Source: a virus
Strand: one strand, 5' to 3'
DNA: 10,452 nt
Virus genome (UHGV): UHGV-0316020
Positions 1 to 10,452 of the stretch are shown here, piece by piece. The notes under the pieces are model-generated. The model worked only from the letters and a program-made list of their open reading frames with translations. It ran no database searches and had not been told where the DNA came from. The translations under genes were made by a program, and so were the position numbers. How positions within the stretch are numbered: position 1 is the stretch's first letter; every line of letters begins with the position of its first letter.

Positions 1-220
1 CCTGTACATAGATTTGTGTAATTGCCTGATTTTGATATGTTCAATCCAGCATCAAATGAAGGTTAATTTATGGACGAAAAACAGTTACAGACTCTGGCTA
101 ACGAACTGGCCAAAAACCTCAAAACCCCTGAAGACCTCAGTCAGTTTGATCGAATTAACCTTCATTTGATGCTGGATTGAACATATCAAAATCAGGCAAT
201 TACACAAATCTATGTACAGG
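1..220. mobile_element. MITE-like element: 68-bp perfect terminal inverted repeats (1-68 and 153-220) around an 84-bp core carrying the start of an IS256-family-like transposase gene
   Basis: Reverse complement of 153-220 equals 1-68 exactly; first mismatch at positions 69/152. The core has an ATG at 70 encoding MDEKQLQTLANELAKNLKTPEDLSQFD, which I recognise as an IS256/Mutator-type transposase N-terminus. The left arm starts at window position 1, so the repeat may extend beyond the window. Confidence 0.5.
70..180 (+). pseudogene. truncated transposase N-terminal fragment (36 codons) that reads into the right inverted repeat
   Basis: ORF MDEKQLQTLANELAKNLKTPEDLSQFDRINLHLMLD; only the first ~28 residues look transposase-like, the rest is encoded by the repeat arm. 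Too short to be a functional transposase. Confidence 0.4.
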
Positions 221-287
221 CTCAGCTACTGGATATTGACGCTTATCAACTGTAATTTTCAGGGGCTATGAAGCCCCTTTTTATGTC

Positions 288-1058
288 TCAATAAGTGCCC
301 TTCTTATTCGGATTCACAGAGTACTTTCGTAAAGCATTACCCGACTTAAGCACTTTTGAAGCCTGCTCATTAGCTGAGGCTGTGAAGGTGCTCTCACCAT
401 TTTTAACGCTAACGCTCTTAGAGCACGTTACACGGGCTTTTAATGCTTCATCTGATAACTCACTTGCCGAATAGCTAAAAAGCTCTTTACAGGTCAGCAT
501 AGGTCTTCCAAGACTCGTTGTAGTGTTGCCAGTGTTCTTTTTACTGGTAGCACCACCGTCATTCGTGGTAGCAGTTTTGCCAGTAGCTGCTGAAACATCA
601 GTTTGCCCTACGATTGAACGAAATTCTACACCTTGGAAGGTCATCTGAATACGAAGACCATTAGCAATGGTATGCTCTTTACTCGCTTTAAACTGAGTAA
701 TGATACTATCAGTGATAGATATTCCATCTTTACAAACAATAGTGATGATTTGCTTCTGGTCTCGCCATTGTTCAACCGTAGAAATAAAGGTTTCTACAAG
801 TTGCCCCTGTCTGGTTAATAGAACTGAACCCGTCGAATCAACCACTACAACACCGCTGATAGAGATGGTCTTAGGTGCTCTCTGAACATTATCAGTTATA
901 GTTTGCCCCGATTGCATAGCCTGAGTTGTCACCATCATCGGTGAGTCATAGTCCATCTGTTCAGTAGCTGTTAAGGCAAGAAAAGATTCTACATTATCTC
1001 TAAGGTGAAAATAGATACCATCTTTACCTGAGTATCTAATTTGCTTTGTGTCAAACAT
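288..1058 (-). CDS. phage tail protein encoded immediately downstream of the tape measure gene (possibly distal-tail/Dit-like); function not recognised from sequence
   Basis: 256-aa ORF; RBS AGGA 9 nt upstream of the ATG; same strand and directly downstream of the tape measure gene; beta-rich N-terminal half, Thr/Ser/Gly-rich linker, small C-terminal domain. Product assignment is by synteny only. Confidence 0.4.
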
Positions 1059-1189
1059 TGTTGTTATTCCTATTCTGTTAAGCGTGAGCTACGTGAAATC
1101 TAATTTTTGATGTTGGTATCTGTTCAGAAGAAATCACGTAGCATTCGACTATTCATAGTTGAATCGTCATACTAGATAAAGATTAATAG

Positions 1190-1207
1190 ATTGCCATGTG
1201 TGGCAAT
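1190..1207 (-). terminator. weak hairpin (ATTGCCA-tgtg-TGGCAAT) 25 nt downstream of the tape measure stop; possible partial terminator or RNA processing site
   Basis: 7-bp perfect inverted repeat with 4-nt loop; on the minus strand it is followed by a moderately U-rich stretch, not a clean U-tract. Confidence 0.25.
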
Positions 1208-1231
1208 AAATATTAGTAGTTCTAACATTGT

Positions 1232-3298
1232 TTATTCCTCTGGGTAAGCTGAGCTAATCAAGGTATCTTCCTGCATACGATTAATATGAGATGTGGTTCT
1301 TTCATCAATAACCTTTCCATCAAGTACCGTCTGAGTTGTGATATTGATTGTCTGAGGCTGAATGTTTACTGACGGCTTGATAACCTTTAAATCTTGTGTG
1401 AATGTTTCCACTCGACCTTTCAGATTATTTAATGCTTCAGGTGAAAACTGTGGAACATCCTTTGATTTGCCCTGAACCATAGCCCATAAAACAGCAGCTA
1501 AAGAGTTCATGTCACCAGTCAATGCTTGGTCTGTGGGTTCCACCTTTGACCTTACAACTTTGTCAATTGGATTATCTGACTTACTCATCTGACGTTCATA
1601 GAACGGTTTAACAATGGAGTTAATCACATCAGTTGCCATACCGACAATCATTACTTTGGTAATTGCATCAGCTACAGATAATTTTCCTTTACCACCTTCA
1701 ACACTACCGGAACGTGAATTAATTCTTCCTGCTGCTGTATTTGCTACATTTCCAAGCGTGGAAATAGCCCTAATTAAGCTCCAGATGCCACCTACAGCAC
1801 CAATACCAGACCTTACAGCAACAATACCAGCAAGTCCCTTTAATGCACTTAACAGGCCATTTGCGATACCATCAGCTACAGCTTTTTGAGTGTCATTTAA
1901 TTCTCTGTAAGCAAGGGTCACTCTGTCAAAGAATCCCTGCACTCGGTAGCTAATCGTGGTTAAATCATCAATACCGTTTGACATACTTTTCATCAAGTTG
2001 CCAAAATGTTCACCAAGATTTTTAGATTGCCCACCTAGCGAATTAAGTAAATTAGTCAGTGACCTTGTAAAGTCTGTTAACCCTTCCTGTGAACCATCGA
2101 ACATTAAGGCCAGATTATTATTCCATGAATTACTTAAGCGGCCTAACTGCGTCTGAGTAGAGTTAATAATCTTTTCCCATCCACCCGCTTTATCAATCAT
2201 CAAGCCCATCTGTTTAGCGACTTTAGGGAGAACATCTTTAGAAAGAACCTTACCGTCTTTCATGGCCTTGTCTAATTCTTCCGTAGTCATCCCAAGGCTT
2301 CTGGCAAATAACTGGAAAGCACCTGCCATTCTGTCACCTAGCTGACCGCGTAACTCTTCAGCTTGAATCTTTCCTTTAGAAGCCATCTGCTCGAAAGCTT
2401 TTAGAATCCCGTTAATCTCATCAGTGCTTAAACCCATTAGTCGGGATGTACCAATCACATTAGAAAATAAGGATTCTTTCTGGTCTGCATTCATATCACC
2501 AGCACCAGCGGAAAACTTAGCAAAGCTGCTTAATGTCTCAATCTGGTCTACACCAGTATTATTAGCAAGATTCTTAACAAATTCTGTAGCTCGTTTAGCA
2601 CCTTCATCACCTAAAACGAATTGTGCCGCTCGTTGTGATGCTTCTTTTTTCAGACCAACCTCCATAATCCGCCTGTAAGCTTCTAAGGCTGTCTGAAAAC
2701 TATAAATGGCTGTACCTGCTTTGATTGCACTTGTAGCTAATACATCCAGACCATTCGAAGCATTTTCACTGTGATTATTTTTGCTGGTGGTCTTGTTAAA
2801 CTTAGAAAGTGTTTCACGTAGATTTTGATTTAACTTTGCTAACTCACGATTAAAAGCTTCGTTCCCAAGTGTCTTGGATTTACTGCTTAAGCTGTAATAC
2901 TGGCTTCTAAAATACTTCTCAAGCAGAGGATTAAAGTCACGAAGTTTGCTCATATTCACGCTATGCGCTGCTGTGATTGCTCTGTTGCCGCTAATTCGTG
3001 GTTGCCTTGCTGCTTTAACAGTTTCTTCAACCTGAGTTTTGAACTTAAAGACCTTCGTAGATTTGGCTCTTTCCTCCAGCTTATTAAAAGTCTGGTTAAT
3101 CTTCTTTTCCATATTCCCCAAAGAGGCTGTTAAATCCTTATCCATGCTCTTTGGGTTAACTTTAAATGCTTTATTTAAATTACGCTCAATCTTTGTAGCT
3201 GACTGCAAAGCTGCCTTTTCAACTCTTTGCAGTCCCTTAATAACGTTCTCATTGAAGCCTAGCTCAACGATAAAACTATCAACTGTGAATTTGCTCAT
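1232..3298 (-). CDS. phage tail tape measure protein (TP901-family-type core)
   Basis: 688-aa ORF with helical repeat-rich N-terminus, a conserved tape-measure core (..EELRGQLGDRMAGAFQLFARSLGMTTEELDKAMKDGKVLSKDVLPKVAKQMG..) and a Gly-rich hydrophobic segment (GIANGLLSALKGLAGIVAVRSGIGAVGGIW); RBS GAGGTGA upstream of the ATG. Confidence 0.85.
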   Translation of the reverse strand: MSKFTVDSFIVELGFNENVIKGLQRVEKAALQSATKIERNLNKAFKVNPKSMDKDLTASLGNMEKKINQTFNKLEERAKSTKVFKFKTQVEETVKAARQPRISGNRAITAAHSVNMSKLRDFNPLLEKYFRSQYYSLSSKSKTLGNEAFNRELAKLNQNLRETLSKFNKTTSKNNHSENASNGLDVLATSAIKAGTAIYSFQTALEAYRRIMEVGLKKEASQRAAQFVLGDEGAKRATEFVKNLANNTGVDQIETLSSFAKFSAGAGDMNADQKESLFSNVIGTSRLMGLSTDEINGILKAFEQMASKGKIQAEELRGQLGDRMAGAFQLFARSLGMTTEELDKAMKDGKVLSKDVLPKVAKQMGLMIDKAGGWEKIINSTQTQLGRLSNSWNNNLALMFDGSQEGLTDFTRSLTNLLNSLGGQSKNLGEHFGNLMKSMSNGIDDLTTISYRVQGFFDRVTLAYRELNDTQKAVADGIANGLLSALKGLAGIVAVRSGIGAVGGIWSLIRAISTLGNVANTAAGRINSRSGSVEGGKGKLSVADAITKVMIVGMATDVINSIVKPFYERQMSKSDNPIDKVVRSKVEPTDQALTGDMNSLAAVLWAMVQGKSKDVPQFSPEALNNLKGRVETFTQDLKVIKPSVNIQPQTINITTQTVLDGKVIDERTTSHINRMQEDTLISSAYPEE

Positions 3299-3347
3299 TC
3301 ATGTTTTTCACCTCATAGACTTCGGATAGAAGACTATCCTCATATAC

Positions 3348-3388
3348 AAAAAAGGGAGAGCTACCGATGTCACTCGATAATCTCTCCC
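3348..3388 (-). terminator. intrinsic terminator-like hairpin between the 70-aa ORF and the tape measure gene
   Basis: GGGAGAG (3354-3360) pairs with CTCTCCC (3382-3388), 21-nt loop with an internal CGA/TCG pairing; on the minus strand the stem is followed directly by UUUUUUGU (complement of 3346-3353). Confidence 0.45.
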
Positions 3389-3414
3389 GTTGATTTTTAC
3401 CCAACCAATTCTTT

Positions 3415-3627
3415 TTAATGTCTGACAAGATAATGTAATTCCGTTTCACCTATGATTTGGGCATCAGAAGGGATACGGTCGATACACCACTTTGGAATCT
3501 TGCGTGTTTTTGGTTTGTGTGAGGTGATGTAATGACGGTTATTCTTAATTCGTAGCTTTTGTCTATTTGGTTGTAGCTGGAGTCTTTCGCAAACAGACCG
3601 AATAGTCTCTAAACGTTCTTCAAACAT
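3415..3627 (-). CDS. hypothetical small basic protein (70 aa)
   Basis: ORF with RBS GAGGTGA 6 nt upstream of the ATG; starts 23 bp after the stop of the 234-aa ORF; Lys/Arg-rich; no motif recognised. Confidence 0.6.
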   Translation of the reverse strand: MFEERLETIRSVCERLQLQPNRQKLRIKNNRHYITSHKPKTRKIPKWCIDRIPSDAQIIGETELHYLVRH

Positions 3628-3650
3628 TAATCACCTCACATATTGCATAA

Positions 3651-4355
3651 TCAAACAGCCTTGCTAAATTCTCGTGGAACACTCAGAAAATCATTGAAGC
3701 TGATAATCTGTGCCAACTCTTGACGGTACTCCTTAGCCAGCGCTTGATGGTCACTAATCAGCTTAGCCAGTCTTGATTTCAGCAAATTAATCTCATTTTC
3801 TCTTGCTTTCATCAGTTTCTCTTTGGCAATTTCTTCAAGCTCAGCTTGTGATTTATCAGCAACAATTAGAGACAATCGATGTGGTGCTCTGACAGCTCTT
3901 TCTGTACGAATAACTCTTTGACCTTCTGGTAAATCTGCAATCACTTTACCAATCTCTACAGGGTCATACCCCCAACCGTCACGGTCTAGTCGAGAGAAAT
4001 AAGCATAAGAATTGGTTTGAAGCTCCATTAAAATAGCCATTTCGTCAATTTCGTCTTCAAGCTTGGACTGAATTTTCTCGTAAACACTTCTCATTGCTTC
4101 TTGAGAGTCTTTAATAGCTTGGAAATATCGGCGTTGTAGCTTCAACTTCAAATCAAGTTCACACCGTTCGTTCATAGAAAAATCAATTTCAACTCTTGGA
4201 ATCTCTAGTGGTTCTGGTGGAATATATGGACCTTTATTTACTTCGTGTGATTCCCGCCAAGCTCTATCAAAAGATTCACGCAAACTTAATTCGTGAATAT
4301 CAAGTGCACTTGGTCTGTTCTCAACAATCATTTCGTGTTCATTACGAATAGACAT
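3651..4355 (-). CDS. hypothetical protein (234 aa) with coiled-coil-like C-terminal half
   Basis: ORF with strong RBS AAGAGGTGA 7 nt upstream of the ATG; charged heptad-like C-terminus (..EINLLKSRLAKLISDHQALAKEYRQELAQI..); no family recognised. Confidence 0.7.
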   Translation of the reverse strand: MSIRNEHEMIVENRPSALDIHELSLRESFDRAWRESHEVNKGPYIPPEPLEIPRVEIDFSMNERCELDLKLKLQRRYFQAIKDSQEAMRSVYEKIQSKLEDEIDEMAILMELQTNSYAYFSRLDRDGWGYDPVEIGKVIADLPEGQRVIRTERAVRAPHRLSLIVADKSQAELEEIAKEKLMKARENEINLLKSRLAKLISDHQALAKEYRQELAQIISFNDFLSVPREFSKAV

Positions 4356-4463
4356 TATTTTTTCACCTCTTGGTTTTTGTTTGTTTGTTTTTCAATTTAT
4401 AGAAGCACACTCAGCAATCAGAGGTGAAGAGTCTGACTGAACAAGAACCTGCCAAGTGTGCCT

Positions 4464-4536
4464 TTAAAAACTGAAAAAGCCCTAAACATAGGTGATTCGG
4501 ATATTCATGGAATCATCCTTATCTGTGAAGGGCTTT
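4464..4536 (-). terminator. compound stem-loop with trailing U-tract in the 3' region of the small-protein operon (non-canonical terminator candidate)
   Basis: Outer stem AAAGCCCT (4476-4483) / AGGGCTTT (4529-4536) with inner stem TGATTC/GAATCA; on the minus strand followed by UUCAGUUUUUAAAGG. The loop is long, so the terminator call is tentative. Confidence 0.3.
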
Positions 4537-4596
4537 GGAGGTTTGCTTTATAACGTTAACGAAGTTTCAGGAAAAACTTTCTTTAAAAGCTCTGTT

Positions 4597-4635
4597 TAAA
4601 AACTCTTAAAGAAAGCCCTAACTCATGATTAGGGC
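4597..4635 (-). terminator. intrinsic terminator-like hairpin for the minus-strand small-protein operon
   Basis: Stem GCCCTAA (4615-4621) / TTAGGGC (4629-4635), 7-nt loop; on the minus strand followed by UUUCUUUAAGAGUUUUU. Confidence 0.45.
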
Positions 4636-4864
4636 AAAGCTGTAAAGGATTCAATAACGAATGAACAAAGACTTTTTGAGATGACCTCTCAAGTTATATA
4701 AGAGGTCATGTAGCGAAAAGCATTGCACCTTTCCAACTCAGAATATAGTTATCATCGATGTAGAATGATTAATATTTTAATTCAAGGAGAATTGCTCTCC
4801 CTATATATAAAATTATGTCATGCTCAAGGTTATTTGTCAACAGCTTTTAACAGATTGGTAACAT

Positions 4865-4930
4865 TTATACTTTAATAGATGCACCTGCAATCATACCAAT
4901 CAATACAAAACAGATAATCACCAATTCCAT
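4865..4930 (-). CDS. candidate 21-aa hydrophobic peptide (MELVIICFVLIGMIAGASIKV), translationally coupled to the 107-aa ORF
   Basis: Its ATG overlaps the TAA stop of the upstream ORF (TAATG at 4928-4932); GAGG lies about 10 nt upstream; the peptide is essentially a single transmembrane-like helix. Not in the supplied ORF track because it is too short. Confidence 0.35.
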   Translation of the reverse strand: MELVIICFVLIGMIAGASIKV

Positions 4931-5253
4931 TAATGCACCACCCTCGAATCCGTCACCAAAATATTGTCAGCGTACAAAATTGCTATAGCCGCCTTGAGAT
5001 ATTTTTCAGGGCTAACGCTGTATCGGTTAGTTTCCTCAATAATAAGGCGCTTCATGTTTGAGTCGGTAACGGGAAACATAAAACGTGGGTCACCAGTTTC
5101 AATTTCCTGAATAAAATCTTCAATTGTTTCTGAGTTATCAGCCATTAGCTTTAGTAATTTATCAAAGTCAATTGATACACCGGAATCACTGAAAGCCTGA
5201 ATCATCAGAGCGGTGTCGCTATCAACGAAAATCTGTAGCGGGAAATTATTCAT
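4930..5253 (-). CDS. hypothetical acidic protein (107 aa)
   Basis: ORF with RBS AGAGGA 7 nt upstream of the ATG; acidic composition; no motif recognised. Confidence 0.65.
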   Translation of the reverse strand: MNNFPLQIFVDSDTALMIQAFSDSGVSIDFDKLLKLMADNSETIEDFIQEIETGDPRFMFPVTDSNMKRLIIEETNRYSVSPEKYLKAAIAILYADNILVTDSRVVH

Positions 5254-5391
5254 TTTTAAAATCCTCTAAAAACACATCTTAAATCTGCCAAAATAGCCAT
5301 TCTGAGGCCAGTAACCATGCGGGTTACAGAGGGAGTGAGACACCTTAGTAATAGGGTAGCTCATCTTTGAGTCTCACTCATTCTCACAGAC

Positions 5392-5778
5392 TTACACAGA
5401 CGCTTTAATCTTGTAGTATTGACTACGTGATAAACCGTATTTCTCAGAAATATAACTTTGTGATTGTCCTTTGGTGATTGCATCAATGATTAAATCTTTA
5501 TCGTATCTGTTGCCATTGGCTTTGTGCTTGTCACCATTTTTAATAGAGTTGAAACTCTCAATTAATTTAATGGCGTCTTTAAGGTCGTCTTCGTAAGCAT
5601 AATCAAAACCCCTGATAAACTCGAAATCACCATTATCTTTTTGTGCTTCAGTCCAGATATCAAATCTTGAGGCTAATTGCTGGTGGGTAAACTTGGGTTT
5701 ATTGGTTTGTGTTACGTCTTTCCAGACTTTACCGTCAAATCTTACCAAATGGTCACGATGTTTATAAAAGTCATACAT
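5392..5778 (-). CDS. hypothetical protein with C-terminal helix-turn-helix (possible transcriptional regulator)
   Basis: 128-aa ORF; its ATG overlaps the stop of the upstream 93-aa ORF (TAATG at 5776-5780); C-terminus SQSYISEKYGLSRSQYYKIK has the helix-turn-recognition-helix pattern. Confidence 0.65.
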   Translation of the reverse strand: MYDFYKHRDHLVRFDGKVWKDVTQTNKPKFTHQQLASRFDIWTEAQKDNGDFEFIRGFDYAYEDDLKDAIKLIESFNSIKNGDKHKANGNRYDKDLIIDAITKGQSQSYISEKYGLSRSQYYKIKASV

Positions 5779-6059
5779 TAAACCTCCATCGCTAATTTGT
5801 GAATTTTGATGCTTAGCAACCTTGCTAAATCCAGTCCAAAAGCATTTAAAGATTTCAGACTATCAAGGTCATCTTGCTTAATCCTGATATGGTGTCTTGC
5901 AGCCTCTAAGCGACTATTAAGCAAATCTTGTTCGTTAATATCACGGTTAATTGCAAGCTTCATCACTGCTGAGTGTGGCAGACCTGTAATGTTTTTGATT
6001 CGGTTAAGTTCTTCAAAGGCTGTCTTTGTAACTCTGGTTAGCGTGTGTTTATTTCCCAT
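5778..6059 (-). CDS. hypothetical protein (93 aa; start revised to the internal ATG)
   Basis: The track ORF 5778..6161 overlaps the upstream gene by 100 nt and has no RBS; the ATG at 6057-6059 (MGNKHTLTRV..) is preceded by AGAGGAA and sits 2 nt after the stop of the 184-aa ORF. Confidence 0.6.
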   Translation of the reverse strand: MGNKHTLTRVTKTAFEELNRIKNITGLPHSAVMKLAINRDINEQDLLNSRLEAARHHIRIKQDDLDSLKSLNAFGLDLARLLSIKIHKLAMEV

Positions 6060-6060
6060 T

Positions 6061-6615
6061 TTAAAATTCCTCTGCTTGTGCGTATACGTCAAATTCAAAG
6101 TCTGGTTCACTGGTTGTAAGGCTGATATTTCCAACTTCCGCATGATGATTAATTGTCTCAATAACTTTCATACAAATAGTGGCTAAGTTAGCGCAATATT
6201 TATCACTTGGTAATTCGTAGCTAAGTCTGGTTGCTTGTCTTTGAAGATGGCTCGTCACTGTGCTTGAACTAATCTCATCAAGACTTCGCAGTAAATAAAA
6301 AACCTTCCGGTGATAATTATCTCTTCCAAGACTGCGACAAGTACCGATAATTACATCTTCAATTTTTGATGGTAGTTGCTCGTAAGAATCAAAGCTCATC
6401 AAGAAAGTTTTTAAAGTATTCTCTTTTTCTTTGCGTACTGGCATAAATCTGTCTCGTGGCGTAATGCTACGAATGACCGCTTCAATGTTTTTACGTTCGG
6501 TTTTGGAAAAGGCTGGTACTTCGTAGCTGGTGGGGGTGTCTGTGTAAGCGTAGGAGTTGTGCTTGTTGCGTTCTCTTGATGCCTGAAGCATCGCTCTAAA
6601 TTCTGAATCCTGCAT
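6061..6615 (-). CDS. hypothetical protein (184 aa), first gene of the minus-strand small-protein operon
   Basis: ORF directly downstream of a TTGACA-17-TAGTAT promoter; GAGGG upstream of the ATG; no motif recognised. Confidence 0.7.
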   Translation of the reverse strand: MQDSEFRAMLQASRERNKHNSYAYTDTPTSYEVPAFSKTERKNIEAVIRSITPRDRFMPVRKEKENTLKTFLMSFDSYEQLPSKIEDVIIGTCRSLGRDNYHRKVFYLLRSLDEISSSTVTSHLQRQATRLSYELPSDKYCANLATICMKVIETINHHAEVGNISLTTSEPDFEFDVYAQAEEF

Positions 6616-6666
6616 TCATATTCTGACCCTCATGAGATGTTATTATTCTGTTAACTTATATATACA

Positions 6667-6695
6667 ATACTAGCATTTTCAAAGACTAATGTCAA
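6667..6695 (-). promoter_or_regulatory. sigma70-like promoter for the 184/93/128/107-aa operon
   Basis: On the minus strand: TTGACA (complement of 6690-6695), 17-nt spacer, TAGTAT (complement of 6667-6672), about 50 nt upstream of the ATG at 6615. Confidence 0.5.
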
Positions 6696-6702
6696 GCATT
6701 TT

Positions 6703-6732
6703 TTAACATTTCATTAACATCTGTGGTATAAT
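6703..6732 (+). promoter_or_regulatory. divergent sigma70-like promoter with extended -10
   Basis: TTAACA (6703-6708), 18-nt spacer, TGgTATAAT (6724-6732); its -35 lies 8 bp from the -35 of the minus-strand promoter, giving a back-to-back arrangement. Confidence 0.45.
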
Positions 6733-6912
6733 GGTTCTATGAGAGAGGGAAAAATAGAAAAGGCGTGGCTATGTATTTGGTCGCATGTTTTGCATTGCAC
6801 ACAGACCTCTTCAATCGCTCTGTAACGAGTTAAATGGCCTCTTCAGGTCAACTATAAGGTCAGGTACTTTTTGTATCAGAATGCGATTGAGAGCGTCTTA
6901 CAAGGAAAACTA

Positions 6913-7089
6913 ATGGTAAATCTCCCTCCTGAGCTGGGGTCACCTGATGTATGGGCTGGTGGAGGCGTTGGGCTGATTGCAGGTCTGCTACTCCGCTACG
7001 TCCTCGTCAGAGTGCTTGTTGTCTTTAAACTGTTCGGTCGTACATGGACGCTTGACCTTAAGGATAATGACCACACAGAACCCCGTTAA
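6913..7089 (+). CDS. small single-pass membrane protein (58 aa)
   Basis: ATG at 6913 preceded by AAGGAAAA at about 6-nt spacing; the track ORF starts further upstream at a TTG with no RBS. Hydrophobic segment WAGGGVGLIAGLLLRYVLVRVLVVF. Looks more GC-rich than its neighbours. Confidence 0.5.
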   Translation: MVNLPPELGSPDVWAGGGVGLIAGLLLRYVLVRVLVVFKLFGRTWTLDLKDNDHTEPR

Positions 7090-7147
7090 CCCCCCTTCAA
7101 AACCCCCTGTACGAGATGACAGATAGAAGTCTATGGTATAGGGGTGC

Positions 7148-7190
7148 CTTTAGCATTTTGTGCTATCTATTAAAAAATAGCTTGACAGAA
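7148..7190. repeat. copy 1 of an imperfect direct repeat (CTTTAGCATTTnGTGCT..TTATTAA..CTTGACA) that flanks the methyltransferase cassette
   Basis: Aligns with 8272-8340 (about 22 of 26 matches in the first block plus a shared CTTGACA block); copy 2 carries an internal ~22-bp duplication. Confidence 0.5.
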
Positions 7191-7211
7191 CCGGAAAGCT
7201 GTACCTATCAA
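7182..7211 (+). promoter_or_regulatory. possible plus-strand promoter that would read antisense into the methyltransferase 3' region
   Basis: TTGACA (7182-7187), 18-nt spacer, TATCAA (7206-7211); no plus-strand ORF downstream. Confidence 0.25.
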
Positions 7212-7495
7212 GTATTCACCTCTCTGACAGTAACTTCTAAAAGTTCTTATTTTTCAATGAGTTGTAATCACCCAATATAAAGGACTGACAAGACTCTTCA
7301 CAGAGAACTTCCTGGACTCACTAAGATACAAGGCGATAACCCCAAAAAGGGAGAGCCACCTTCTTAACTGCCCCCTTAAACAATCTTTACAGACCCCGTT
7401 CACCAGTCTCAATATTTTATTTCTCGCTCTTCGTTTGTTGCTCGTTTCTATTATTGAGGGGGTTTGAAAAACCTCTGTAAAATAACCCTTCCAGT

Positions 7496-7528
7496 AAAAA
7501 GCGAATAACCCCAGAAAGGGGAAATCGC
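7496..7528 (-). terminator. intrinsic terminator of the methyltransferase gene
   Basis: On the minus strand: GCGA-UUU-CCCC-UUUCU-GGGG-UUAU-UCGC followed by UUUUU, about 40 nt after the stop at 7569. Confidence 0.55.
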
Positions 7529-7568
7529 CTCTTTAACATTCTCGTAATCAGTGCTCTATATGAGAATT

Positions 7569-8237
7569 TCAGCCCAACCTTTGAACAATCCTGTAAGTGG
7601 TGCTTAGAGGCATTCTTAGCGATTCTGCGATGCTCTTGATGGATTGCCCTTGGTCATGCATTTTAATCAACCTGTCAAGCGTCTGTGCATCGTGTATATG
7701 AGGTCTTCCACGTAAACCACCCCTGTTAACCACGGCAAGTAAAAGCATTGTGTCGCCACAATAAATTGTCTGGGTAACTTCAACTTTCGGTTTGCGGGGT
7801 GTGTTCCTGTATATCAAAACGCAACTTGGAAACGGTGAACGCGCTGCAACACCTTTCTTCCCTGCTGGTGGAAGGTATTTGACTGCTCGGTGTAACGTTC
7901 GAATCTCATGCAGGAAGGGGTTTGTATATACACACCGAAGCCAGTAAGTTGTCTTTGACCTGTGCGGAACCAGACATACACACACATCAGCTTCAGGGGC
8001 TTTTGAGAGGAACTGTTCAGCCATGCTAAACGGCGGGTTAACGAAGACCCGTTCACCAACCCACGATTGACGGCTTATATCATCGGTGAACCGTGGCAAC
8101 AATGCGTCATGCTCAGTTGCAGCACCATCTAAAGTGAAGTTAAACTCACGATGCAGGTTATGAAATAAACGATACGGTGTACGCCAGTCATCAGAACCAC
8201 CATGATAACGACCGACATTGATTATTGGATGTGACAC
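7569..8237 (-). CDS. Dam-family (phage-type, PF05869-like) DNA N6-adenine methyltransferase with a C-terminal serine-recombinase-like GRP+HTH extension
   Basis: GTG start with RBS AAGAGGGG upstream. N-terminal ~150 aa carry DWRTP, FTLDGAA, VFVNPPFS (NPPF catalytic motif), CLVPHRSKTTYW and FPSCVLIY. The final ~55 aa (..NRGGLRGRPHIHDAQTLDRLIKMHDQGQSIKSIAESLRMPLSTTYRIVQRLG) resemble a resolvase/invertase C-terminal DNA-binding domain. Confidence 0.8.
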   Translation of the reverse strand: MSHPIINVGRYHGGSDDWRTPYRLFHNLHREFNFTLDGAATEHDALLPRFTDDISRQSWVGERVFVNPPFSMAEQFLSKAPEADVCVCLVPHRSKTTYWLRCVYTNPFLHEIRTLHRAVKYLPPAGKKGVAARSPFPSCVLIYRNTPRKPKVEVTQTIYCGDTMLLLAVVNRGGLRGRPHIHDAQTLDRLIKMHDQGQSIKSIAESLRMPLSTTYRIVQRLG

Positions 8238-8271
8238 AAGCGAAGCGCCCCTCTTAGTATATTTCTTAATC

Positions 8272-8340
8272 GTCTCTTTAGCATTTAGTGCTTTTTATTA
8301 AGTTTAGCACTTTTTGCTAAAGACAAAACACTTGACAAAA
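8272..8340. repeat. copy 2 of the imperfect direct repeat flanking the methyltransferase cassette (with an internal duplication TTTAGTGCTTTTT / TTTAGCACTTTTT)
   Basis: See copy 1 at 7148-7190; lies directly upstream of the methyltransferase start codon. Confidence 0.5.
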
Positions 8341-8745
8341 TGGTAAGATTGTTCACATGACCTTACTTAACAGATTCTTAAGAGCTTTGAAACGAACTGT
8401 TTAACAGGTCACTACATCTGGTCTTATCGTTCCCTGTCTTCTTGGTAGTTCTGTTAAGTATCTTTTCAGGTATCTCTTACAGTCACTGTTAAGATGATAC
8501 TCTCCCTTCGGGTTATATCGTATCTCTCCTCCCGTTAAATACCCCTTCACAGTCAGACTAAATAACACCTGTGTAGTTTCTTGGTAGAATCTTTCAAGGT
8601 AACTTAACTCTGAGTTTATGAAGTTGACCTATGAGATAGATTCTACCGAATCTGTTAGTCAATTGTTGCTTAGGTGCTGCTAAGGCTTACTTAGTGGGAA
8701 GAGAGGGAATATGTGACCATAGGAACCCCTCCTGTTAAAAGTTTC

Positions 8746-8773
8746 TTGACGTTACTATCTCGATATGTATAAT
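8746..8773 (+). promoter_or_regulatory. strong sigma70-like promoter (TTGACG, 16 nt, TATAAT)
   Basis: TTGACG at 8746-8751; TATAAT at 8768-8773 preceded by TG; a CCTGTTAAAA motif (8731-8740) abuts the -35. Confidence 0.6.
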
Positions 8774-8779
8774 GGCTTA

Positions 8780-8950
8780 CTGTACTAGGTTTACTTCCAA
8801 AGCAACCAAGCACACTCTCTATGGCAGTGTCCGGCGAGGTAAGGTCGTGTAGGGTGCGGTTCGGTGGGGTAAGGTTTGGTGCGGTATGGGTGGATTGTCG
8901 TAGCCACGTTAAAAATCGACTTATAGGGACTCTTTCGGGAGTCCTTTTTA
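8780..8950 (+). ncRNA. candidate ~170-nt G-rich small RNA delimited by promoter and intrinsic terminator; class unknown
   Basis: Predicted start about 7 nt after the -10 and end at the terminator U-tract; body contains tandem GGTAAGGT / GGTGCGGT units (8838-8895); no RBS-equipped ORF inside. Confidence 0.4.
8927..8950 (+). terminator. intrinsic terminator: GGACUC(U)-UUCG-(G)GAGUCC hairpin followed by UUUUU
   Basis: 7-bp stem including one G-U pair (8927-8933 / 8938-8944), UUCG tetraloop (8934-8937), T-run at 8945-8949. Confidence 0.6.
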
Positions 8951-9126
8951 GTTTGTATAAAATCTGTACAGTAACTTTTCAGAGTCTGAAAATTTTTATA
9001 AATATCGTAGTAACCCCTCTACATTCCCCTTCACCGATAATCTTAAAAATATCTGACAGATGTCTGTAGCTGCTAAGTACCCGTCACACCAGCTATGTGA
9101 CCCCCTTGGCAAAAAAGCCAAATATC

Positions 9127-9144
9127 AGCTACATCCATGTAGCT
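9127..9144. other. palindrome AGCTACAT-CC-ATGTAGCT, 11 bp downstream of the recombinase stop: recombinase terminator hairpin and/or crossover-site-like sequence
   Basis: Two perfect 8-bp inverted half-sites around a 2-bp spacer; on the minus strand followed by GAUAUUUGGCUUUUUU. Confidence 0.35.
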
Positions 9145-9154
9145 ATTCAGTAAC

Positions 9155-9703
9155 TTATTTAGCAAGTCTGTAATAAGTTGCTCTAGAGATTCCTAACTCT
9201 TCCTGAATCTGCAACCTCGTCTTACCTTGTGAAATAAGCGCCTGTACAGCCTCTGAAGAAGCTTTTACAGGCCTCCCCATATGTACCCCTTCAGCTTTAG
9301 CACGTTCAATACCAGCCTTTCTACGTTCACTGATAAGGTCTTTTTCAAGGTCAGCTAAACCAGCCATCATAGTAAGCATTGCTTTACCGATTGGTGTAGA
9401 CAGGTCAAAACCTTCACGTAAAGAAACAACCCTCACACCTTTAGTCTGTAGTGCCTCCACGTTAGAGAGCACATCAACGGTATTACGCCCTAAACGGTCA
9501 ATAGCTACCACAACTAACGTATCGTCACACCTTACATAGTTCATCATGTCTCTAAAACCATCTCTGCTGGTGGCCTTTGTAGCTCCTGAGACAGCCTCAT
9601 CAATAAACCATTTATCGACCTTGTGAACCTTCTCTATCTGTAGTTTCTGGTTGTCTACAGTCTGGTCTTGTGTTGATACCCTGCAATAACCAATCACCGC
9701 CAT
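9155..9703 (-). CDS. small serine recombinase (resolvase / Hin-Gin-type invertase family)
   Basis: 182-aa ORF; N-terminal IGYCRVSTQDQ with the catalytic Ser at position 10; VVAIDRLGRNT; E-helix ..ERRKAGIERAKAEGVHMGRP; C-terminal HTH LQIQEELGISRATYYRL; RBS AGGGG upstream of the ATG. Confidence 0.9.
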   Translation of the reverse strand: MAVIGYCRVSTQDQTVDNQKLQIEKVHKVDKWFIDEAVSGATKATSRDGFRDMMNYVRCDDTLVVVAIDRLGRNTVDVLSNVEALQTKGVRVVSLREGFDLSTPIGKAMLTMMAGLADLEKDLISERRKAGIERAKAEGVHMGRPVKASSEAVQALISQGKTRLQIQEELGISRATYYRLAK

Positions 9704-9719
9704 AATGTTCCCCTAAGAA

Positions 9720-9825
9720 GTCTCAAAAGTTGGTCTCATAAGTTTAGCTGTCTCATAATTCAAAAACAAGCTTATGAGACACTTGGAAGGTGCATTCTAC
9801 CGTTACGTTGAAAGTGTCTCAAAAG
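9720..9825. promoter_or_regulatory. array of five GTCTCA(A/T)AA(G/T) repeats (four direct, one inverted) directly upstream of the recombinase start: operator- or iteron-like
   Basis: Copies at 9720-9729, 9733-9742, 9750-9759, 9771-9780 (inverted) and 9816-9825; 9733-9742 and 9771-9780 form a perfect 10-bp inverted repeat. Confidence 0.45.
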
Positions 9826-9962
9826 GACTTCCTTTTAAGACTGGTTATGAAGGAGCTATGAAGATTTTAGGAAGGTAACTATAACCATCACTTTCTAACT
9901 TTCACGTAGGAAATCGTTAAGTTTCTTGATAGTTACACCACGTAACCAAACATCTATACATC

Positions 9963-9984
9963 GCTATATAGCCCTGTATATAGC
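9963..9984. repeat. palindrome GCTATATA-gccctg-TATATAGC (operator-like)
   Basis: Perfect 8-bp inverted arms with a 6-bp spacer. Confidence 0.4.
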
Positions 9985-10126
9985 ACTTTTCTAGGAGTCG
10001 AGAGAGGGACGACTAACACCCTGCATAGTTCCCTGAAAAGGGACTTCACAGATTCTTTATATATTTCAATAAGTTATGCTAAAAAGAGACTATACCGATA
10101 CTGCATAGAATCTGTGTAAAACTGCT

Positions 10127-10371
10127 TAGATACTTGGAAATCTACTATTAAATTGCATAGTCATTCACCTGATATTGTCAAATGATTATGACTTCAATGA
10201 CCCTTGAATGAAGTCTATTCGGTTTTCTAAGAGACCTGTTAAAAACAGGACAATATCAGGTGAATGACTATGCAATTTAATAGTAGATTTCCAAGTATCT
10301 ACCTGTTTTTAACAGGTCTCTTAGAAAACCGAATAGACTTCATTCAAGGGTCATTGAAGTCATAATCATTT
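10127..10371. repeat. interleaved inverted repeat A-B-A'-B': A 10127-10179, B 10180-10249, A' 10249-10301 (reverse complement of A), B' 10302-10371 (reverse complement of B)
   Basis: Verified base by base: 10249-10301 is the exact reverse complement of 10127-10179, and 10302-10371 is the exact reverse complement of 10180-10249. B ends in the near-palindrome CCTGTTAAAAACAGG. Confidence 0.8.
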
Positions 10372-10452
10372 CAGTAGAAAAACCAGGTCTCGATTTTAAA
10401 TGCAAATAGCAATCATATTCAATAAGGCAAGACGATCAGGATCAGTGAAAAT

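Follow-up and report, generated by a model that had tools for sequence, protein, structure and literature searches.

Interleaved inverted repeat at the tonB end of a phage-derived Escherichia coli island is most likely not a real feature

Close to one end of the virus genome UHGV-0316020, two adjacent DNA segments are each repeated, in the same order, as their own reverse complements. Is this A-B-A'-B' pattern a recombination element, the trace of a replication error, or a product of the way in which the record was made? We analysed the whole stretch of 10,452 nucleotides, hereafter the window, and compared it with related loci. A repeat search of the window placed A and A' at 10127-10179 and 10249-10301 (53 nt, 100% complementary) and B and B' at 10180-10249 and 10302-10371 (70 nt, 100% complementary), with base 10249 common to B and A'. 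A script check showed that the reverse-complement identity across the 245 bp from 10127 to 10371 is exact. The chance expectation of such perfect inverted repeats in 10 kb is <1e-24 (~5e7 position pairs × 4^-53). These results confirm the first-pass annotation of this DNA, which had described an interleaved structure with exact 53- and 70-bp arms; the order of the arms also agrees with its statement that this is not a simple palindrome. It had proposed a fold prediction and a comparison with related genomes as checks, and both were carried out. The single-stranded fold of the repeat region is -85.9 kcal/mol (z = -16), and the comparison identified A-B' as ancestral and the reversed copy as derived.

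As the ancestral sequence we used X, the 122-bp A-B' sequence of CUPS04 (locus L001), in which A is joined straight to B'. Letter for letter, window 10127-10371 equals X[1..53], followed by the reverse complement of X[1..122], followed by X[53..122]. The sole novelty relative to relatives is a single copy of the local 122 bp in reverse complement, located at the start of a CCTGTT...AACAGG palindrome. Base X[53] appears twice, which brings the net gain to 123 bp, and two pairs of inverted repeats are seen because the flipped copy overlaps its own source on both sides. The features of the repeat are as follows (a slash marks a joint):

10127-10179, plus strand: A, ancestral X[1..53], island sequence identical to L001 12428-12480
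10180-10301, minus strand: reversed block made up of B and A', an exact reverse complement of ancestral X by string match
10302-10371, plus strand: B', ancestral X[53..122] by alignment to relatives and string match
10302-10316, plus strand: conserved palindrome CCTGTTTTTAACAGG, from the alignment of relatives
Derived joint, A to reversed block: CACCTGATATTGTC/AAATGATTATGAC
Derived joint, reversed block to B': CCAAGTATCTA/CCTGTTTTTAACAGG
Derived joints, alternative form: ...GATATTGTC/AAATGATTATG... and ...AAGTATCTA/CCTGTTTTTAAC...
Ancestral junction at the repeat site: ...GATATTGTCCTGTTTTT...

A ends on the first C of the conserved palindrome, and the break, or insertion point, is the 5' base of CCTGTTTTTAACAGG. 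The hairpin motif CCTGTTAAAAACAGG at 10236-10250 is the reverse complement of CCTGTTTTTAACAGG and belongs to the reversed block. B' contains the palindrome, the island arm of attR, a 13-bp core and 15 nt of the chromosomal tonB 5' region. Neither A nor B' is self-complementary. The ancestral 122-bp version folds ordinarily (z = 0.21), with two small stems only. We also considered whether a cruciform or hairpin in ancestral X could have brought the three breakpoints together, and discarded the idea on account of this ordinary fold.

The repeat sits at the right end of a phage-derived island of ~11.7 kb that lies between tonB and yciI in CUPS04. Window 224-10126 is 99.9% identical to the CUPS04 island, with 9 differences across 224-10179. 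The last 109 nt of the window (10344-10452) are identical to E. coli DNA just upstream of tonB, which is the only annotated feature there, and the match to the island-free tonB region begins at 10344. When complete E. coli genomes were compared with window 9700-10452, 5,423 of the 5,426 matched some part of it. Most matched 10344-10452 only, which is the empty site in other strains, and 89 matched most of the query. Genomes matching at least 80% of this query (89 of 5,426) are referred to as island-bearing. The following features were found at the junction:

10333-10358, plus strand: inverted half-sites GACTTCA-N12-TGAAGTC around the core (putative attR, read from the sequence), which form a stem in the ancestral fold
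10344-10356, plus strand: candidate att core TCAAGGGTCATTG, 13 bp, which holds the reverse complement of the tonB ATG
10393-10422, minus strand: predicted promoter TTGAAT-18-TAAAAT, from a promoter scan

The core TCAAGGGTCATTG is found again, in direct orientation, at the opposite end of the island (L001 ~927-939), and an inverted copy of the half-site pair lies inside B at ~10193-10218. An attP rebuilt by joining both island ends by hand has outer inverted CCGAATA/TATTCGG. A 506-aa gene with Resolvase, Recombinase and Zn_ribbon_recom domains adjoins tonB in both L001 and L007. We infer that GACTTCA-N12-TGAAGTC represents the half-sites of a large serine recombinase. A shared core, inverted half-sites, empty sites and a neighbouring recombinase gene, as expected of an att site of this class of enzyme, are all found at B'. 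Because the core is present at both ends, the half-sites surround it and the adjoining DNA matches the region upstream of tonB, B' appears to hold attR, the island/chromosome junction, and the tonB promoter appears displaced. Judged from these sequence features, a large serine recombinase put the island into the tonB start codon of E. coli. The promoter at 10393-10422, which we take from the K-12 sequence to be the tonB promoter/Fur-box region, is cut off from tonB by the island and aims into it through B', the reversed block and A.

The consequence for tonB is that its coding sequence is kept, while its own promoter and Fur-regulated region are lost to it and now aim toward a small recombinase gene of the island. 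The new DNA upstream of tonB comes from the left end of the island and contains a Fur-box-like sequence, AATTGATTATCATTT, found by eye (L001 ~1000-1015, minus strand).

The comparison with relatives gave a uniform picture at the repeat. A is joined directly to B' in all six aligned genomes, which vary in divergence, and the reversed block 10180-10301, the only DNA at the repeat site without a counterpart in relatives, is a gap in each of the six. Among the matches listed, the 9700-10452 query spans 620-692 bp in 40 island-bearing genomes, versus 753 in the window. The reversed copy is absent from the 5,426 complete E. coli genomes, including the 89 that bear the island. Using the invariant 29-mer CTAGGAGTCGAGAGAGGGACGACTAACAC, we gathered 37 related loci, drawn from contigs of viruses, metagenomes and genomes; none of the 37 has an exact inverted repeat of at least 16 nt in the 520 nt after the 29-mer. 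A 24-mer across the A/B junction had 0 matches in one-genome-per-species contigs, JGI metagenome contigs and IMG/VR, and the junction-spanning ORFs (33, 36 and 51 aa) are absent from an index of 153 billion genes. The most informative relative was found through the exact baseplate protein of the window. This 48.6-kb metagenome contig, ENA ERZ27269955 k141_176866 (L008), matches window 153-10179 and 10303-10452 without a single mismatch and carries plain A-B'. Isomers in which A or B alone is inverted were found neither in the E. coli genomes nor in the aligned relatives, L008 or the 37 loci. The origin is very recent, one of the two possibilities given in the first-pass annotation: the arms are 100% identical and the structure is absent from an otherwise identical relative. 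A search of the repeat region against Rfam gave nothing at gathering score; at E <= 5 only sub-threshold models of plant and animal miRNA precursors appeared, and these were dismissed as generic hairpin matches.

The same relatives gave information on the sequence around the repeat. One has a perfect 15-bp palindrome, CCTGTTATTAACAGG, in place of CCTGTTTTTAACAGG, and others have CCTGTAATTAACAGG; in most related loci the palindrome lies ~188-210 nt past the invariant motif. Conserved ~46-32 nt from the att centre, CCTGTTTTTAACAGG lies outside the minimal att and is a candidate binding site for a dimeric protein. Three direct copies of TGCATAG lie within 140 nt beside attR (10022-10028, 10102-10108 and 10154-10160), and a flipped copy is at 10268-10274. 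The whole window has 5 matches to TGCATAG versus 1.35 expected, and 5 were reached in 2 of 200 shuffles. The copies are largely kept in relatives, and an accessory or regulatory protein may bind to them. Islands that are elsewhere only 88-94% identical share the block 9985-10022, which includes CTAGGAGTCGAGAGAGGGACGACTAACAC, without change. This block is also present in E. albertii and in many metagenome loci without the tonB core, which presumably integrate elsewhere. It had no Rfam match and may serve as a regulatory site or encode a small RNA.

The other end of the window was found to contain a second reversed block, in DNA derived from an insertion sequence. Window 1-68 is the exact reverse complement of 153-220, a perfect inverted repeat of 68 nt, and the features at this end are:

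1-152, minus strand: reversed block, IS1414 bases 4-155 in the wrong orientation, 100% identical to IS1414 copies
153-223, minus strand: genuine left end of an IS1414 copy, bases 1-71, from mapping of the IS terminus and from L008
Derived left-end joint: CAGTTTGATCG/AATTAACCTTC
Ancestral joints that are the counterparts of the derived ones: CACCTGATATTGTCCTGTTTTTAACAGG and CGTCCATAAATTAACCTTC

IS1414 belongs to the IS256 family. Three copies with 8-bp target duplications show that its terminus starts GAGCCTGTAC... (GAGCCTG...); therefore, the genuine IS end is window 153-223 and window base 1 is IS base 4, which is no biological boundary. The element lies in the large serine recombinase gene of the island, 31 bp short of its stop codon. 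The insertion itself is real, because L008 has it too; the foldback is not shared. L008 shares this insertion, yet it has the normal IS orientation, and it ends 140 nt into IS1414, as expected of a k = 141 graph contig. No genome has the IS1414 arrangement of window 1-220 (best coverage, 51%). A natural IS1414-derived MITE was considered for 1-220 and rejected, since the arrangement occurs in no genome and its inverted copy begins at IS base 4 and not at the terminus. Terminal foldbacks like those of the window are absent from the ~50 other loci compared, many of which are complete contigs.

Using IS1414 and L008 as the ancestral reference, the whole window decomposes exactly into four blocks: 1-152 reversed (152 nt), 153-10179 forward (10,027 nt), 10180-10301 reversed (122 nt) and 10302-10452 forward (151 nt). 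In ancestral coordinates the reversed blocks overlap their forward neighbours by 68 nt at the left end and by 53 and 70 nt at the right end. Microhomology, forward and backward, is 0 nt at all three strand-switch joints, and both reversed blocks lie within 325 nt of the ends of the window.

We believe that the pattern is probably a technical artefact, in which mis-oriented or chimeric pieces stand at both ends of a contig, and that it is not a heritable or functional element. Our inference is that the window represents one entire contig, parts of which were flipped in silico through an error of layout or extension. The true local sequence would then be the 122-bp A-B' at the right end (attR) of the tonB-integrated island, as in all relatives. 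A read-sized 122-nt piece spanning A-B' would have entered in reverse-complement orientation and been placed between the contig body, which runs to X[53], and the final 151-nt piece, which starts from X[53]. Since the flipped piece no longer overlapped its neighbours, the 53-nt and 70-nt overlaps would have been kept twice and would show up as two interleaved perfect inverted repeats. Likewise, at the other end a flipped 152-nt IS1414 piece would give the 68-nt inverted repeat. The exact decomposition into ancestral blocks supports this explanation, as does the lack of microhomology at the three joints, since polymerase-driven switches usually have some. The defects are near the ends of the record, and the terminal blocks of 152 and 151 nt and the flipped block of 122 nt have the sizes of short reads. 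The repeat is unique, its junction 24-mer and ORFs being absent from the collections searched. L008, otherwise identical, has neither reversed block; thus the defect is missing from an independent assembly and recurs in unrelated sequence near the ends of one record, as expected of an assembly or library chimera. The first-pass annotation had allowed that an assembly artefact could account for the structure, and the absence from L008 together with the second reversed block largely bears this out.

Some observations fit an artefact less well. The 152-nt block is one base over a standard 151-nt read, and the end defect, seen in none of ~50 other public contigs, is not common there. A polymerase stalling in vivo would be expected to do so at the foot of a hairpin-forming palindrome, which is precisely where the break lies, and a real mutation of very recent date would likewise leave a contig of identical lineage that lacks the structure. 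A literature search found nothing specific on the tonB island or on inverted-repeat artefacts at contig ends. Two particular technical routes were examined and rejected. For joints made by proximity ligation or at restriction sites, GATC/AATT abuts the left joint only and is out of register, and the other two joints have no sites. A turnaround in a De Bruijn graph at a palindromic k-1-mer would yield a simple palindrome and no novel joints.

Of the alternatives, a real and very recent template switch in vivo survives best, although we consider it unlikely. It would be a neutral mutation, private to one clone, of type 3-1-4-2 in the four-point template-switch model, in which one event gives two inverted repeats (Loytynoja & Goldman 2017, PMC5453318). 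Replication would have stalled after X[53] at the foot of the CCTGTTTTTAACAGG hairpin and jumped 69 nt ahead onto the opposite strand; 122 nt would then have been copied back to X[1], before a return to X[53]. The geometry fits perfectly: the window reads as F1, then a local fragment, reverse-complemented and overlapping both switch points, then F3, and, as in such switches, the ancestral state can be recovered from relatives. The switch point abuts a conserved hairpin or palindrome, and the 100% identity of the arms, together with the absence from near-identical relatives, would suit a private and recent mutation. The fit is poorer in other respects. Short complementarity at switch points, which is usual but not obligatory, is absent here (0 nt at each joint), and points 1 and 4 have no spacer between them but a 1-nt overlap. 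The copied fragment of 122 nt is far above the typical tens of base pairs, the block sizes are like those of reads, and the defects lie near the ends of the record. The existence of another strand-switch block makes an event in the cell doubtful. It lies in unrelated IS1414 DNA in the same 10-kb record, and because the two would be private switches in unrelated DNA at the ends of one 10.4-kb record, two independent events in vivo are very unlikely. Template switching, one of the origins suggested in the first-pass annotation, is the only one of them with a fitting geometry, a single switch and return, but an artefact is preferred.

Two other rearrangement models were worked through by hand and dropped. 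Duplication followed by inversion, or a hairpin-opening of the P-nucleotide type, yields A-A'-B-B' or needs a prior inverted piece.

It is very improbable that the joints were made in vitro, by strand-displacement amplification, PCR or end-repair snap-back, in a chimeric molecule that was then taken into low-coverage contig ends. In multiple displacement amplification (MDA), >85% of rearrangements are inverted and most are intramolecular and nearby, and >70% of the junctions have 2-21 nt of complementarity (Lasken & Stockwell 2007, PMC1855051). The window, with three inverted joints inside one 10-kb record, resembles such chimeras: its joints are local and inverted, occur near the ends of one record only, recur, and are absent from an independent identical assembly. 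However, MDA chimeras usually have 2-21 nt of complementarity and an intervening deletion, whereas the three joints of the window are blunt (0 nt) and the path returns precisely to X[53], which is unexpected of random chimeras. Blunt joints and a precise return are more readily explained by a read flipped during layout than by a chimeric molecule.

We next consider the proposal that the repeat is a recombination hotspot formed by nested site-specific inversions. The enzyme would be the small serine recombinase of the island, or the large one acting on attR, and A and B could be flipped. The small enzyme is encoded nearby:

9155-9703, minus strand: small serine recombinase, 182 aa, Resolvase and HTH_7 domains, phrog_125 'DNA invertase'

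Its start codon (9703) is 424 bp from A, which refines the ~430 bp of the first-pass annotation. A 'DNA invertase'-type recombinase at this distance and an attR inside B' are what speaks for the proposal, and the interleaved pairs near an invertase-like enzyme recall the Hin/Gin/Pin switches and engineered FLEx constructs. If real, the layout would be formally like a FLEx-type interleaved switch. However, natural invertase switches have short, conserved and imperfect sites in all carriers, with both orientations observed, whereas the repeats of the window are long, exact, private to one record and without cargo. Conserved inverted sites were not found in relatives with the same recombinase, nor were both orientations of a segment among genomes or assemblies. 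The adjacent small serine recombinase is present equally where the repeat is absent, and is unchanged there. The repeats occur in none of the 89 island-bearing genomes and none of the 37 loci, despite the same recombinase genes and flanks, and no alternative isomer was seen. Relative to the att centre, the joints lie 46 nt to the left, 22 nt to the right and, at X[1], 99 nt to the left; none is at the att crossover, or at the att core or any dyad site. B' genuinely appears to contain a large serine recombinase att site, but the att explains the surroundings and not the repeat. Finally, inversion is incapable of a net gain of 123 bp, and no simple combination of duplication and inversion, worked by hand, turns A-B' into A-B-A'-B'. 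Nested inversion and a hotspot at this place are thus highly improbable. The near-palindrome that had been taken as a sign of a hotspot is indeed present at the B/A' and A'/B' junctions, but only because the insertion point abuts the pre-existing conserved palindrome.

The least credible proposals are a tandem inversion duplication, although X-rc(X)-X minus B' from copy 1 and minus A from copy 3 does give A-B-A'-B' (by hand), since its two independent deletions must stop at the same base, X[53], and no intermediate forms occur in the E. coli genomes, the aligned relatives or the 37 loci, and a small mobile element with inverted ends, since X spans the island/chromosome junction and hence is no pre-existing element, and the insert lacks terminal inverted repeats of its own and is without further copies in the contig collections searched. 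The paired mobile-element ends of the first-pass annotation fail likewise, as the inserted DNA is a local copy, the reverse complement of its own flanks, and is not accompanied by the target duplication of an IS or MITE beyond 1 nt.

The pattern A-B-A'-B' is therefore most likely not a real feature, judging from the sequence comparisons above. If it is an artefact, its value is mainly for quality control: perfect interleaved inverted repeats near the ends of records should be decomposed against relatives before anyone interprets them as recombination switches. The opposite claim, that a single 3-1-4-2 switch in vivo made a second, inverted attR and an inverted copy of the tonB 5' leader, seems to us decidedly unlikely. 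Were it true, the locus would hold a natural FLEx-like interleaved pair that may flip or delete by homologous recombination and may misdirect excision of the island into inversion. It would also be an unusually long and clean bacterial two-repeat template switch on a recombinase att site, but even so a neutral mutation and a private one. Biologically the surroundings are more interesting, as they comprise a phage-derived island at the tonB start codon that has parted tonB from its own promoter.

Some other properties of the island were noted. Just upstream of the small serine recombinase gene, at 9733-9825, GTCTCATAAG / CTTATGAGAC and related GAGACA motifs make up several short inverted repeats. 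They overlap a promoter-like site at 9822-9794 (minus strand, 10/12 match), and the region is likely an operator or a recombinase-binding region. The CUPS04 island also encodes a Dit-like baseplate protein, a tape measure protein, several unknown proteins and a Dam-type methyltransferase. Across 288-8237 of the window the tape measure and the Dit-like baseplate protein were recognised; capsid, terminase and tail-tube genes were not recognised by Pfam or PHROGs in the ten ORFs tested there, and six intervening ORFs had no PHROG match and at most sub-cutoff Pfam matches. The island may be a prophage in decay or a satellite-like element. The Dam-type N6-adenine methyltransferase (7569-8237, minus strand) has a C-terminal HTH_7 domain of the resolvase type at residues 177-217 (E = 1.5e-5, 25.5 bits versus a cutoff of 23.8), a fusion that is unusual for a methyltransferase.
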